DNA of 64,000 nt from Nitrospirota bacterium (GTDB lineage: Bacteria > Nitrospirota > UBA9217): the NCBI GenBank assembly GCA_963741205.1, contig CAVUHW010000012.1, positions 89,152-153,151 on the forward strand, in the 5' to 3' direction. Position 1 is the stretch's first letter. Each line of letters begins with the position of its first letter. Positions 1 through 6,843 of the stretch are shown here, in pieces. The notes beneath the pieces are model-generated. The model had not been told where the DNA came from and made no database searches. It worked only from the letters and a program-made list of their open reading frames with translations. A program made the position numbers and the translations under genes.

Positions 1-833
1 GTTCAGGCCCTGGATGATCGCTTTCTGCATGGTCTCCAGGCCCACGCCGGGATTGCTCATGGCATAGGTGATGCGGGACATCACGTCCTCGCCGTAGGGC
101 ACCTGGGGGTTCATCATGGACTCGGTGTTCACCACCTTGCCGGTGTTCAGGTCCGTCAGGTAGCCCACGCAGGTCGTCGTGCCGATGTCCACGGCAAGCC
201 CGTAGCTCTCCTCGACGAACCCCGGCTCCGCCTTGATGATCTCCTTGTCCATCCAGACGGTGACCGTGGCCTTCCATCCGCCTTTGCGAATCACGTCCTG
301 GAGGTCCTTCAAGACCAGATAATCGAAGGTGAGGCCCTTGAGCCCGTAGTCGTCCTCAAGGAACTTCAGGACCCGTTCCCAGTCCCCGGTCGTCATGTCG
401 TGGAGCGTGGGAGGGGTGAGCTCGACGTTGTATTTTTTCACGGCCGGATCGAGCTTGATCGTGAGCTCTTTGGCCGCCTTCCGGACGACCTGCTTGCCCG
501 CGCGGGAACGCTCGGGCACGAAGACCTTGATGTCGCCCCGGATCTCGCTCTGGCAGGACAGTCTGATGCCGGGCCCGTCCTGGGGCTTGATGTGCTTCAT
601 CTCGTCGGGCGACGGCACGGCAGGGGAGAGTGGGCCATGCCCGAATCGATGTTGTCCTTCTCGAAATAGCCTTCTTCGATCCTTACCTTGCACTTTCCGC
701 AGACTTTTTTATTGCCGCAGAGCGCTTCGATATCAACGCCCAGGGCCTGGGCGGCCTCGAGGATGGTCTTGCCTTCCTCGATCTCGCCGCGCCTGCCCGC
801 AGGCTGAAATATGACCTTGTGTTTCTTAATCAT
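1..833 (-). CDS. RACE/RamA-type ATP-dependent corrinoid reductive activator (N-terminal 2Fe-2S plus ASKHA/DUF4445); runs off the left edge; frameshift near 620
   Basis: N-terminal CGNKKVCGKC 2Fe-2S motif. The downstream frame reads GLAVDIGTTT...NPQVPYGEDVMSRI, the ASKHA RACE signature. RBS AGGAGG upstream. Confidence 0.9.
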
Positions 834-900
834 GCAATTCCTCCTAATACTAAATCATGAGAATTCACCACAGAGCACGAGGTAGCGAAAATGAGCGAAC

Positions 901-1620
901 TCAGAAGTAAGACACCTTTCTAGATTCGCGCCTCGATTCCGGGCTGATGTCTCCGTGATCTCCGCGTCTCCTGCTTCGCGATCTTTTTCGCGTTTCTCTT
1001 CTCCCATAGGGGCAGATGTTGATGCACAGCCCGCAGTTGGGTTTGCCGTCCGTGGCCCGCTTGGCCTTCTTATGACTCCTGCAGGCGTCGAGCCTCACGA
1101 GCTCCACAAAGGGAAGGGACCGGGACCATTCCGCGCCCGTGATCGCCTTCGACGGACAGTAGTCCACGCAGAGCGAGCAACTCGCCGCACAGACTGTGTT
1201 CGATCGGCGCGTCCGGCTCGAAGCGGCGCGTCGGTCAGCACCGTGCCAGGGACAGCCGCGGGCCGTAGTCGGGGCTGATGAGGAGCCCGTTCTTCCCGAT
1301 CCAGCCCAGCCCCGCGGAGGTGGCCGCCATCTTGTGGTTGAACAGCGAGTAGAGCTTCGAAATGAACGTGCCCTTCTTCCGGTCCGAGTCCGGCGGGATG
1401 GCCAGCGTGCGGTACCCCCGGGATTTCAGGAACCGCACGGCGCGCTTCTGGAGCTTCATGAGGAGGCTCAAGCGTGTCCTCATTCAGCCTGCGGTCCACG
1501 CCGATGGACACGGCCTGCTCCAGATGGGCGATCTCGCCGCTCATATGGCCCCGGAGACCGGCAAACCCGACGACGTCGGCGCCGTGGTCCAGCAGCTCTT
1601 TCCTGAGCGAGGTTCTTCAT
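901..1620 (-). CDS. QueG/reductive-dehalogenase-like 2x[4Fe-4S] protein, probably cobalamin-binding (frameshifted)
   Basis: Joined frames give GADVVGFA...HKMAATSAGLGWIGKNGLLISPDYGPRL...TVLTDAPL...CSLCVDYCP...C...CGLCINICPYG. Confidence 0.8.
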
Positions 1621-2313
1621 TTCGCTTTTCTTCGCTTCGACCTCATCCTTCATCTTCTTGAGCGAGGCGATCATATTGATGGCGTCCTTCAAGGCGTTGG
1701 TCGCGTCCTTGGCATAGCCGTCGGCGCCGTACTTGTCGGCCACGTCCTGGGACACGGGCGCGCCGCCGATCATGATCTTGACATTGGGGTTCTTTTTCCG
1801 GAGGTCGTCGATCACCTTCTTCATGCCCGTCATGGTCGTCGTCATCATGGCCGAGAGGCAGACGAGGTCCGAGTCGGTCCGGAGCTGCTCGTGCCACGAA
1901 CTTGTCGAGGGGCACGTCGCGGCCCAGGTCGTAGACCGTGAAGCCCGCCACGTCGAACATCATCTTCACGATGTTCTTGCCGATGTCGTGCACGTCGCCT
2001 TCCACGGTCCCGATCACGACCGAACCCTTGACGCCAAGGTCGAGCTGCGTCACATGGGGCTTCAGGATGTCCAGGCCCGCATAGAGCGCGTCAGCGCACA
2101 TGAGGAGCTCCGGCACGAAGTACTCCTGGGCCTCGAACATGCGCCCCACCTCGACCATGCCGGAGACGAGGCCGTTGAAGATGGCGTCGTTCGGCGTCCA
2201 TTCCCACGCTCAGGACCTCGTTGGCGGCCTCCTTGGCCGTGTCCTCGTCGTAGGAGATCACGGCGTTCCGCAGTTTCTGCCAATAGCTCTTTCTTCTTCT
2301 CTTCCGTTGCCAT
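1617..2313 (-). CDS. Corrinoid (B12-binding) methyl-carrier protein, MtaC/MtbC/MttC family (frameshifted; 3' end uncertain)
   Basis: EYFVPELL cap, GTVEGDVHDIGKNIV (DxHxxG), SAMMTTT and IMIGGAPV motifs. RBS GGAGG. Confidence 0.93.
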
Positions 2314-2317
2314 GGGA

Positions 2318-5325: not shown

Positions 5326-6363
5326 TCACAGTTTCCACTCCAGCGCCACGTCGTGGAACTTCCGGAGATTCTCGTAGGGAATCGTCGGCGGGATGTCGCA
5401 CCCGGGCACCAGGATGAACCCGCCGTCCTTGCCGGCGACCTCGATGACCTCGCGGCAGGCCTTCTCCACCCCCGCGACGTCCTGGTTGAGCAACACGTGC
5501 ACCGGCGCGACGTTGCCCCCGAAGCTCATCTTCCCCTGCAGCGCCTCCTTGGCCTTGGCGATGTCCACCTTCTGGTCGAAGAAGATCGTGCTCGCCCCCG
5601 TGAGCGGGAACAGATCCAGCCGGTCGCTGGTGTTCCCGCAGATGTGCAGGATCGAGTGCACGCCCTTGCCCTTGGCCCAGCCGGTGAGCTTCTTCAGGCC
5701 CGGCACCGCGAAGCGCTCCATCTGCTTCTTGTTGATCAGATCTCCCGAGGCGGTCGGGTCAGCGATGCTGATGCACTCGAGGCCGTCCTTTACCAGCGGC
5801 TCGTAGAGGTGGATCAGCAGGTCGGCGCAGAAATCGACCATCTTCTCGACGAACGCCGGCTTCTTGAAGGTCGCCTTCATGAACTGCTCCTCGCCGACGA
5901 AGCGCGCCGCAAGGGTGAACGGCCCCCAGCAGGTCATCGTCACGAGGTAGGTGTCGCCGATCTTCTCCCGGACGCGCCGGGTCGCCTCGAGCACCGTCTG
6001 GACGACCGGCTCGCGGTGGACGTCGGCGATGTCGAGCTTCGCCAGGTCCTCCTCGGAGTTGACGAAGTGGGTGGTCATGTCGGGAGCGCCCATCTCGCGG
6101 TACTTGATCCCGACCCCGAAGGCCTTGCCGAGCGCCGAGGCGTGGAAGTTGTTGAAGCCCGAGCCGACGTAGACGACGTCGCTTCGGATTCGCGCCGCCT
6201 CCGCCACGCACATATCGGTCATCTTCTGCGGATCGTGGGCGAGCGCCTCGAAGGTCGTCCCGAAGTCCTTGATCGACCACATCCCCGCGCCGAAGAGGGT
6301 CACGGGAATCCGGTCGCCCTTGCCGCCCTCAAATGCCTTGAGTATCACTTCCTTCGGTTTCAT
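5326..6363 (-). CDS. MtaA/CmuA (URO-D fold) methyltransferase, copy 2
   Basis: Intact ORF with WGPFTLA, ADPTASGDLI, HICG and PGCDI. Confidence 0.9.
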   Translation of the reverse strand: MKPKEVILKAFEGGKGDRIPVTLFGAGMWSIKDFGTTFEALAHDPQKMTDMCVAEAARIRSDVVYVGSGFNNFHASALGKAFGVGIKYREMGAPDMTTHFVNSEEDLAKLDIADVHREPVVQTVLEATRRVREKIGDTYLVTMTCWGPFTLAARFVGEEQFMKATFKKPAFVEKMVDFCADLLIHLYEPLVKDGLECISIADPTASGDLINKKQMERFAVPGLKKLTGWAKGKGVHSILHICGNTSDRLDLFPLTGASTIFFDQKVDIAKAKEALQGKMSFGGNVAPVHVLLNQDVAGVEKACREVIEVAGKDGGFILVPGCDIPPTIPYENLRKFHDVALEWKL

Positions 6364-6485
6364 AGCATCTCCCTTCATGAATAAAGTAGAATCAAACCTT
6401 CAGCCCGCTTGGGGCCGCCATCATTTAATGTAGCACAAATAGAGTTCCTGCGTGTATGGGCTGACAGCAACGGTCCTAATGGGCT

Positions 6486-6813
6486 TCAGACTGCGATACT
6501 GTGGATCGTGTGCTTGAACTCTTCGAGATCAACGGGCGTCTCGACGGACGGCACATCCGCATCGACTGCCGCCCCCCACGACGAGCGTGGGCGTGCCCGG
6601 CGACACGGCCTTGATGATCTCCACCGCGTCCTCGGCGGACAGGCCGAAGGGCTCCGAATCGATGATGACGAAATCATATTTCCCGAACAGGACCTTTTGA
6701 ACGGCGAGGGAGGGATGCTCGACGATTTCCACGTTGTAGCCTTCCTCGCGAAGGACACAGTAGAGGCTCTTGACCAGAATGGGATTGGAGGAACAGAGAA
6801 TGATGTTCTTCAT
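6486..6813 (-). CDS. Stand-alone atypical receiver (REC) domain protein (frameshifted)
   Basis: REC-like pattern (YDFVIIDSE, TPTLVV, PVDLEEF). The acidic pocket is replaced by CSS and the conserved Lys is not seen. Confidence 0.65.
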
Positions 6814-6827
6814 GGCAGGGATTTAAC

Positions 6828-6843
6828 TGCATTTGCGATGCCA
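6828..6843 (-). promoter_or_regulatory. Putative sigma54 -24/-12 promoter
   Basis: TGGCATCGCAAATGCA (GG-N10-GC) just upstream of the REC gene that heads the cassette. Confidence 0.5.

Follow-up and report, generated by a model that had tools for sequence, protein, structure and literature searches.

The 64,000-nucleotide stretch of DNA analyzed here (the window; G000:C12:89152-153151) belongs to a Nitrospirota genome (G000) of 4.27 Mb, assembled in 50 contigs at 84% completeness. The first 6843 positions of the window appear to form the promoter-proximal half of a sigma-54-controlled operon of about 13 kb, found in uncultured Thermodesulfovibrionia (Nitrospirota). Judged from sequence comparison, this operon would encode a corrinoid thiol methyltransferase system joined to genes for coenzyme M precursors, a combination that stands, in biochemical terms, as a proposal. 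That the operon, by way of its corrinoid protein, exchanges methyl groups between folate and a thiol, be it coenzyme M or a different one, is a prospect we regard as about even.

A conserved methyl-transfer core

The core of the operon consists of one corrinoid protein, the ATP-dependent reductive activase RACE, an MtrH-family enzyme and two methyltransferases from the superfamily of uroporphyrinogen decarboxylase (URO-D), with a zinc site, here called MtaA-like 1 and MtaA-like 2. All eight genes of the operon that reach into the window lie on the minus strand, in the order response-regulator receiver (REC), MtaA-like 1, CMD/AhpD-like, MtrH-like, MtaA-like 2, corrinoid protein, QueG-like and RACE when read from 6843 down to 1. 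Eight co-oriented genes in this order had been put forward in a preliminary description of the DNA, and they were recovered by tblastn together with Pfam and NCBIfam scans. Coordinates come from tblastn of a relative's intact proteins onto the window contig, in addition to these scans; intact reference copies were regions taken from the genomes G007 (MtaA-like 1 protein 96% identical) and G003 (90%), in both of which every gene is whole.

MtaA-like 1 (5326..6378, minus strand) is an intact gene for a protein of 350 aa (368/350 aa in G003). MtaA-like 2 (2318..3342, minus), which has 342 aa in relatives, was recovered in two pieces (3223-3342 and 2321-3262) with an N-terminal frame break near 3221. 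The MtrH-family methyltransferase, of the methylcorrinoid:pterin type (3480..4438, minus; 315-330 aa in relatives), is present as three PF02007 pieces of 83.1, 19.3 and 37.2 bits, with frame breaks near 4144, 3952 and 3902. The corrinoid protein, at about 1620..2313 (minus; 230 aa in relatives), carries B12-binding_2 and B12-binding domains and the DxHxxG motif; tblastn gave four frame pieces for it, against two in the open reading frame list, and its intact counterpart in a relative scored 98.6 bits for PF02310 and 74.9 bits for PF02607. The N-terminal 40% of RACE, comprising the 2Fe-2S, linker and middle domains (RACo_linker 88.4 bits, Raco_middle 81.2 bits), falls inside the window at 1..833 on the minus strand. 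From there the gene runs off the left edge to window coordinate -1149 (tblastn pieces 630-833, -50..699 and -1149..-25); the intact RACE of G003 has 668 aa and all four domains.

A protein search of 41 related genomes gave strong orthologues of MtaA-like 1 (E <= 1e-130) in 17 of the 40 other genomes. When one genome per species was scanned with RACE as the query, relatives were confirmed in 299 of 312 candidate stretches, and the best 80 loci were kept; nearly all of these are from metagenome-assembled genomes (MAGs) labelled Nitrospirota, Thermodesulfovibrionia, Ca. Sulfobium or Dissulfurispiraceae. Upstream linkage was counted in loci with at least 6.2 kb of upstream flank (n = 53) and downstream linkage in loci with at least 5.5 kb of downstream flank (n = 59); these counts, like the co-occurrence counts below, were all taken from closely related genomes of a single bacterial class and do not represent independent events. 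A search for synteny, suggested as a check in the preliminary description, bore out the arrangement: both MtaA-like genes and the CMD, MtrH-like and corrinoid protein genes stand upstream of RACE in 53/53 loci, joined by the QueG-like gene in 51/53 and by REC in 45/53, and the coenzyme M pair described below is kept in 52 of 59 close loci.

Coenzyme M precursor genes beyond the window

The operon runs on in the same direction past the left edge of the window, as seen in G003, G001 and G002. The genes there encode, in order and all in that direction, DUF6951 (104 aa; PF22263, 98.5 bits), an HdrE-like membrane protein (228 aa; 59.6 bits against a cut-off of 300 for the DsrM model, no Pfam family), an HdrD-like protein (400 aa; two CCG stretches of PF02754 at 80.1 bits, Fer4_8 at 45.1 bits), a cysteate synthase (TIGR03844, 480 bits against 324.9 in G003) and a fused sulfopyruvate decarboxylase ComDE of 380 aa (TIGR03845, 185.1 against 147.95, and TIGR03846, 229.9 against 221.5, both in locus L046). 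ComDE scores under the phosphonopyruvate decarboxylase cut-off. The HdrD-like protein is under every equivalog cut-off, the best being TfrB, a subunit of the CoM/CoB thiol:fumarate reductase (181 against 385), with DsrK at 93 against 400. The window genome has these five genes at window coordinates -1603 to -6134, all of them frame-broken except DUF6951; the best piece of its broken cysteate synthase scores 134.5 bits. The preliminary description had looked to the genes left of the window as the place where a canonical MT1 could undo its proposal; inspection gave DUF6951, the HdrED-like pair, cysteate synthase and ComDE instead.

In archaea, cysteate synthase and ComDE make up the phosphoserine route that leads to the coenzyme M precursor sulfoacetaldehyde. 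In Methanosarcina acetivorans, knock-outs of cysteate synthase and of comDE are reported to be coenzyme M auxotrophs (PMC11844431). The 52 loci that have the pair have both genes in the same direction as the rest of the operon, and the same 59 loci hold DUF6951 in 57 cases, the HdrD-like gene in 53 and the HdrE-like gene in 51. Seven loci depart from this pattern. In L090, genes for a sulfonate-binding protein of the SsuA family (194.2 against 163.5), a permease and an ATPase are inserted after DUF6951, and the cysteate synthase lies further on, past this sulfonate ABC importer; L062 has a ComA-family gene 7 kb off on the opposite strand (PF02679, 214 bits; archaeal equivalog 68 against 280). 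Five of the seven exception genomes were searched whole, and four of them have a cysteate synthase over the cut-off elsewhere. Presence of the gene follows that of the methyltransferase: 15 of the 17 relatives with an MtaA-like 1 orthologue have a cysteate synthase over the cut-off, and none of the 23 without one does (40 relatives), or 15 of all 41 genomes searched. Of the 17, G005 (74% complete) and G015 (98% complete) have none over the cut-off. In some relatives a methyl-accepting chemotaxis gene lies between DUF6951 and the HdrE-like gene (L013:4204-5796 in G003; L090:15004-16551).

These genes alter the reading of the methyltransferases. The preliminary description had read the module as one for a halomethane or methyl-sulfur substrate; for one or both MtaA-like proteins the substrate is probably a thiol cofactor that the operon itself supplies, and a role as MT1 for an outside substrate need not be assumed.

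Zinc sites of the two MtaA-like proteins

Both proteins have the PF01208 fold over their full length, MtaA-like 1 with 193.5 bits (window copy) and MtaA-like 2 with 243.3 bits (relative). MtaA-like 2 of G003 passes the cut-offs of two subfamily models, PRK06252 'methylcobalamin:CoM methyltransferase' (272.6 against 244) and TIGR01463 (250.1 against 235.4), and MtaA-like 1 is under both (175.1 and 179.2, respectively). Full-length alignment to the solved MtaA of Methanosarcina mazei (4ay7) gave 97 bits for MtaA-like 1 and 168 bits for MtaA-like 2; besides MtaA, phmmer against PDB matched both proteins to uroporphyrinogen decarboxylases only, and to no further methyltransferase. The HICG and PGC stretches of 4ay7 align with both paralogues. 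We take the zinc-binding residues of 4ay7 to be the His and Cys of HICG and the Cys of PGC. The corresponding residues are invariant in each protein, namely H248/C250/C330 in 56 unique orthologues of MtaA-like 1 and H242/C244/C320 in 65 unique orthologues of MtaA-like 2. According to PMC10418091, His-Cys-Cys is the zinc sphere of the S-methyltransferases in this superfamily, and O-demethylases have carboxylates or non-ligands in these places. Methyl-sulfur chemistry would thus fit the zinc site of both proteins. The preliminary description had proposed a halomethane or methyl-sulfur substrate feeding methyl-tetrahydrofolate; its methyl-sulfur form survives as one version of the reading proposed here, and the halomethane form gained no positive support.

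Sequence databases add no function to these names. With MtaA-like 1 as query, 1378 proteins were found at E <= 1e-10; the best 120 of the 1378 are all at least 75% identical, and the names among those 120 go no further than 'uroporphyrinogen decarboxylase', with no functional label. The ESM Atlas returned URO-D clusters only.

The claim in the preliminary description that no classical MT1 is present holds for MtaB and MttB beyond the window: PF12176 and PF06253 had no match in the whole 84%-complete window genome, with a positive control in Methanosarcina, and no classical MT1 is seen among the genes downstream of RACE. The further part of that claim, that no O-demethylase MT1 is present, cannot be read from family names, because O-demethylase MT1 enzymes themselves belong to the URO-D superfamily (PMC13222342, PMC10418091). 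The window genome has a third URO-D/MtaA-like paralogue at C22:197552-198544, 29% identical to MtaA-like 1 and present in several relatives. It was considered as a hidden MT1 partner and rejected: in G001 (L113:8613-9668) it is solitary, beside a small membrane protein and Isc genes, and stands without corrinoid genes.

The folate side and a proposed methyl route

The MtrH-like protein of G003 (315 aa) matches PF02007 with 181 bits and passes NF002142 (338 against 287). Its matches in PDB are 8z9u_B (172 bits) and 6sj8, the methylcorrinoid:tetrahydrofolate methyltransferase of D. hafniense (137 bits); on the MtgA model NF047990 it reaches 160 against an equivalog cut-off of 550. Its nearness to 6sj8 upholds that part of the preliminary description which called the operon a corrinoid methyl-transfer module with an MtrH-type enzyme on the folate side. 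The ACS domain PF03598 of acetyl-CoA synthase (ACS) is present in the window genome, so that a Wood-Ljungdahl link for methyl-tetrahydrofolate exists.

In the route that we propose, the cell would make coenzyme M or a close two-carbon thiol-sulfonate, and MtaA-like 2 would pass a methyl group from the corrinoid protein to that thiol or back. A second transfer, by the MtrH-like enzyme, would take place between the corrinoid protein and tetrahydrofolate, and so join the system to the Wood-Ljungdahl pathway. MtaA-like 1, the more divergent paralogue, may serve a second compound with methylated sulfur (or selenium). Co(II) would be re-reduced by RACE and the ferredoxin-like protein, and the AhpD-like and HdrED-like proteins would hold the thiol in its reduced state, drawing electrons from the quinone pool. 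The net flow would most likely run from a methylated sulfur compound to methyl-tetrahydrofolate. We infer coenzyme M as the methyl acceptor from the gene context.

Weighing the proposal

Several observations weigh against this reading. MtaA-like 1 passes no NCBIfam cut-off, and neither protein meets the equivalog cut-offs of MtaA_Meth (400) and MtbA (600), on which MtaA-like 2 scores 251 and 181 and MtaA-like 1 scores 156 and 170. CmuA, the chloromethane enzyme, keeps the same H-x-C and P-G-C at the aligned places, so that the zinc triad by itself is no proof of a thiol substrate. G015, at 98% completeness, has an orthologue of the methyltransferase and no cysteate synthase over the cut-off. 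The coenzyme M synthase family PF01837 (COG1900; MMP16/ComF, L-ASST) had no match in the window genome (84% complete) or in G001, G002, G003, G019 and G024, five relatives that are 98-100% complete, in a search whose control was positive in 3 of 14 named genomes; without ComF, the end product may be another sulfonate. The same six genomes have no MCR alpha subunit (PF02249), and so no known consumer of methyl-coenzyme M. The close kinship of the genomes counted also deprives the linkage counts of independence, and substrate, direction and expression in this organism are put forward here as proposals. As to the missing synthase, MMP16 is reported to be dispensable in M. acetivorans at high sulfide (PMC11844431), so that sulfidic bacteria could finish the pathway chemically or by another enzyme. 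A bolder form of the proposal, which we hold to be quite unlikely, is that these bacteria make coenzyme M without the archaeal ComF, that the DUF6951/HdrED-like module (perhaps with the QueG-like protein) carries out a quinol-driven reductive thiolation of sulfoacetaldehyde, and that methyl-coenzyme M is a bacterial intermediate by which a soluble MtrH/corrinoid/MtaA relay links methylated sulfur compounds to the Wood-Ljungdahl pathway. If true, this relay would be the cytoplasmic counterpart of the membrane Mtr complex of methanogens.

The operon shares its core of SCMT homologues, corrinoid protein and RACE with the mlp-type clusters of Kountz and Balskus (PMC10418091), and it might likewise act in salvage of methyl sulfides or selenides: the URO-D pair would methylate or demethylate sulfur or selenium compounds, coenzyme M would not be the acceptor, and the sulfonate genes would serve an osmolyte, a sulfolipid or a redox thiol. 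A cluster of that look from the Bacillota (Acetoanaerobium, L112) has a corrinoid protein 47% identical to the one here, a RACE at 32%, three URO-D proteins at 26-28% and a CobW-like GTPase at 27%; the AhpD-domain selenoproteins among the weak NCBIfam matches of the AhpD-like protein also suit this alternative, as does the lack of ComF and MCR in the genomes searched. We consider it rather unlikely all the same. Type 1 mlp clusters are described in the preprint without a tetrahydrofolate methyltransferase, whereas an MtrH-type enzyme is present here in 53/53 loci; the main text of the preprint contains none of the terms Nitrospir*, MtrH, cysteate or carboxymuconolactone (PMC10418091); and both the linkage and the co-occurrence with cysteate synthase and ComDE would be left unexplained.

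The same parts list, a URO-D MT1, an MtrH-type MT2, a corrinoid protein and RACE, is that of Mto and of the bacterial O-demethylases, the MT1 enzymes of which are of the URO-D superfamily (PMC13222342, PMC10418091). With MtaA-like 1, and perhaps MtaA-like 2, as the MT1 for methoxy-aromatics, the MtrH-like protein as MT2 and RACE as activator, the operon would then serve methoxydotrophy (Mto/Odm), and the relatives do stem from metagenomes of soil and sediment, settings in which one would expect methoxy compounds derived from lignin. This is very unlikely in our estimate, since His-Cys-Cys is invariant in both paralogues and O-demethylases are reported with carboxylates in place of Cys or without zinc (PMC10418091, PMC13222342); MtaA, moreover, is the sole solved methyltransferase that phmmer finds for either protein, and the coenzyme M genes would have no role. 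Most improbable of all is a dehalogenating methyltransferase system for halomethanes of the cmu, mec or cdm kind, as proposed in the preliminary description on the likeness of the gene set to the cmu and mec architectures. That likeness is confined to the parts list. The operon does share with mec a corrinoid protein, a pterin MTII and more than one URO-D protein (PMC9768040, Table 2), and with CmuA the H-x-C...PGC residues; yet CmuA, a fused protein of 617 aa, is 24-26% identical, no closer than other URO-D relatives, the kinase/receiver pair and cation transporter of mec are not seen here (PMC9768040), and CdmB is reported to lack zinc and to group with O-demethylases (PMC13222342). The operon is also kept in about 100 MAGs from soil, sediment and groundwater and is tied to sulfonate genes, which no halomethane system is known to have.

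Frame breaks in the window copy

Six of the eight operon genes that reach into the window are frame-broken (seven with the N-terminal break of MtaA-like 2) and are spread over two to four frames each. The preliminary description had named the genes correctly and had left these breaks in six of the eight unmentioned. The breaks are 1-nt indels relative to G007 and G003, and only 5326-6378 in the window and DUF6951 to the left read through. Frame-changing indels number at least 20 over about 13 kb and affect 11 of 13 operon genes; lone 1-nt indels against G007 stand at 1891, 2195, 2277, 3221, 3902, 3952, 4144 and 4771, mostly outside homopolymers. Open-frame coverage was useless as a measure of frameshifts at 58% G+C.

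We are fairly confident that the breaks are assembly errors and not gene decay. The ratio of nonsynonymous to synonymous differences (pN/pS) against G007, in the relative's frame, is 0.087 for RACE, 0.118 for the QueG-like gene, 0.083 for the corrinoid protein, 0.072 for MtaA-like 2, 0.046 for the MtrH-like gene and 0.024 for CMD, compared with 0.138 for the intact MtaA-like 1; because the broken genes have values no higher than the intact gene, there is no sign of relaxed selection. Indels of the same type occur elsewhere in the assembly: an unrelated sensor-kinase gene has lone 1-nt indels at 20763, 20898 and 21274, and an acetyl-CoA synthase gene (CdhC/AcsB domain; C22:114567-115037) is split over two frames. 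At 1891/2, 2195/6, 2277, 4144, 4536 and 6567/8 the extra bases are absent from contigs of two DNA runs and two RNA-library runs, all of which have, after 3220, a C that the assembly misses; these contigs, 90-99+% alike to the window, are those of relatives, and no public run contained more than 0.21 of the words of the window stretch. The RNA-library contigs X2 and X7 cover 30/30 and 29/30 bins, which is not evidence of transcription. A completeness of 84% in only 50 contigs would also fit many broken marker genes.

The opposite explanation, that the breaks are real and the operon is here a pseudogene array in very recent decay, draws on the density of the indels, at least 20 in 11 of 13 genes over about 13 kb, next to some intact flanking genes. 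dnaA and yidC are intact, as is the gene of the sigma-54 regulator, with 0 indels over 1331 nt, so that assembly errors would have to be patchy, which counts against our own explanation. Decay is nonetheless unlikely in view of the pN/pS values of 0.02-0.12 in the broken genes, similar to the intact gene, the recurrence of the same indel type in the ACS and sensor-kinase genes, the lack of any of the indels in the contigs of four public runs, and a completeness of 84% with 50 contigs for 4.27 Mb, which broken marker genes would account for. With 1-nt indels this frequent in the assembly, its gene calls and its counts of pseudogenes are not to be trusted, and the window copy is unsuited as a reference copy of the operon. 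In the same comparison with G007, pS differs fivefold between neighbours (0.11 in MtaA-like 1, 0.15 in the corrinoid protein gene, 0.44 in RACE and 0.57 in the QueG-like gene), a mosaic that suggests recombination within the operon.

Promoter, flanking region and accessory proteins

The window reads TGGCAT-CGCAA-ATGCA at 6843-6828 (6828..6843, minus strand), a GG-N10-GC element of the sigma-54 type that stands 15 nt before the REC start codon (ATG, 6813-6811). Of 46 related loci, 44 have the pattern TGGCAY-N5-WTGCH ahead of REC, 28-44 nt from its start; of the two loci without it, one has a masked stretch and the other a near-match. A search with the strict consensus TGGCAC-N5-TTGC and one mismatch gave four matches in the window, a number reached in 63 of 100 shuffles, and none before the operon, the motif of which departs from that consensus at two positions and is therefore missed. 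Relatives have an NtrC-type regulator and a kinase near the operon (2.6 kb from REC for the G007 regulator), and in the window genome such a regulator/kinase pair lies about 12 kb away, at 19198-22718. In the intervening block of about 12 kb, at 7000-19200, two stretches on the minus strand, 7342-8154 and 8716-9951, encode multihaem cytochromes c, and the G007 homologue of 8657-9985 is on another contig. From this arrangement, the block appears to be an insertion or rearrangement in the window genome.

REC (6489..6813, minus) is a single-domain response-regulator receiver of about 110 aa, recovered by tblastn in two pieces (6562-6813 and 6489-6536); the REC of a relative has only weak NCBIfam response-regulator matches. 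Its frame is broken near 6565-6568, and contigs of public runs lack one base at 6567/6568. The CMD/AhpD-like gene (4568..5085, minus; 172 aa in relatives) is in pieces 4771-5085 and 4571-4774 around a frame break near 4771; neither piece alone has a Pfam match, and the intact protein of G003 matches PF02627 with 27.8 against a cut-off of 23. With 77-98% identity across loci this is the most conserved protein of the operon, and 48 of 50 unique orthologues carry its motif YCSPRCIIH. Among solved structures AhpD 5dik comes closest to it (E 2e-5), and its NCBIfam matches, all weak, are to AhpD-domain selenoprotein families only. In the bins over this gene (4681-5148), summed contig depth is 5-15x that of neighbouring bins in two RNA-library runs (X2 866, 1558; X7 510, 186); contig depth cannot rank genes, and the excess is a hint only.

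The QueG/RdhA-like gene (1003..1607, minus; 215-230 aa in relatives, two [4Fe-4S] motifs) is present in three frame pieces. In a relative the protein scores 59.7 bits for QueG (TIGR00276) and 52.3 bits for RDH, both far under cut-off; it matches the QueG structure 5d6s in PDB (E 7e-14) over residues 98-210, and eight Cys are invariant across orthologues. Its predicted structure has low confidence (pLDDT 56.7), and the best Foldseek matches, all QueG/RdhA at TM 0.36-0.42, weakly confirm the predicted family. A CobW/ZigA-like G3E GTPase gene stands divergently upstream of REC in 27 of the 80 loci (for example L046:2900-3775, minus) and may encode a metal chaperone for zinc or cobalt enzymes; none is found upstream of the window copy.

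Comparison with known systems

Methanogens and alkane-oxidising archaea use coenzyme M as their methyl carrier. In bacteria this cofactor is described, in the source cited, only from aerobic alkene metabolism, with a different biosynthetic pathway (PMC9457059). The operon, which occurs in about a hundred species-level genomes of Nitrospirota from soil, sediment and groundwater, would point to an undescribed anaerobic use of coenzyme M and to a methylated-sulfur route into or out of the folate one-carbon pool of sulfur-cycling bacteria. In full-text searches of the literature we came upon no account of the operon that includes its coenzyme M part. Metagenome papers label these genes 'methanol methyltransferase mtaA' (PMC6081815), a label that is probably wrong because no MtaB was found.

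With MtaA, MtbA and MtsA of methanogens the system shares the URO-D fold, the His-x-Cys...Cys zinc site and a separate corrinoid protein with DxHxxG; it differs from them in its bacterial host, in having neither MCR nor an MtaB/MttB MT1, and in a soluble MtrH-type enzyme in place of the membrane Mtr complex. The adjacent cysteate synthase and fused ComDE match the archaeal phosphoserine route at equivalog level. In M. acetivorans the genes are MA3297 (cysteate synthase), MA3298 (ComDE) and MA3299 (MMP16/ComF) (PMC11844431); the third, the COG1900 ComF, was not found at the locus or in the six genomes, and DUF6951 and the HdrED-like pair precede the first two instead. HdrDE, DsrMK and TfrB resemble that pair in two CCG stretches and a 4Fe-4S ferredoxin domain beside a membrane protein with a weak DsrM match, but all scores here are under the equivalog cut-offs (TfrB, DsrK, DsrM). 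The MtrH-like enzyme is of the same family as 6sj8 of D. hafniense and MtgA; it differs in its score on the MtgA model (160 against 550) and has no MttB-family MtgB partner.

CmuA, here taken from plasmid pCMU01 of Methylorubrum extorquens CM4 (L111:2620-4473, 617 aa), is a fusion of methyltransferase and corrinoid protein, which in the operon are separate proteins of 342-350 aa and 230 aa. The mec cassette, MecA-J, comprises a kinase, a corrinoid protein, three URO-D proteins, a receiver, an MTII and a cation transporter (PMC9768040, Table 2); judged from this tabulated composition, the conserved block here differs in having two URO-D proteins, no kinase and no transporter. Neither cmu nor mec has coenzyme M genes, or QueG-like or AhpD-like proteins next to RACE. 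The L112 sequence (NZ_CP154629.1, 2.63 Mb), filed as a plasmid of Acetoanaerobium noterae, is chromosome-sized with 4 annotated features, and the label looks wrong. Type 1 mlp clusters, for which a role in the metabolism of methyl selenides or methyl sulfides has been proposed and which are described mainly from Firmicutes, share with the operon at least two SCMT-like proteins with His-Cys-Cys, a corrinoid protein and RACE in non-methanogens (PMC10418091). Compared by description, the operon of Nitrospirota adds to this set an MtrH-type enzyme, the AhpD-like, QueG-like and HdrED-like proteins and the coenzyme M genes.

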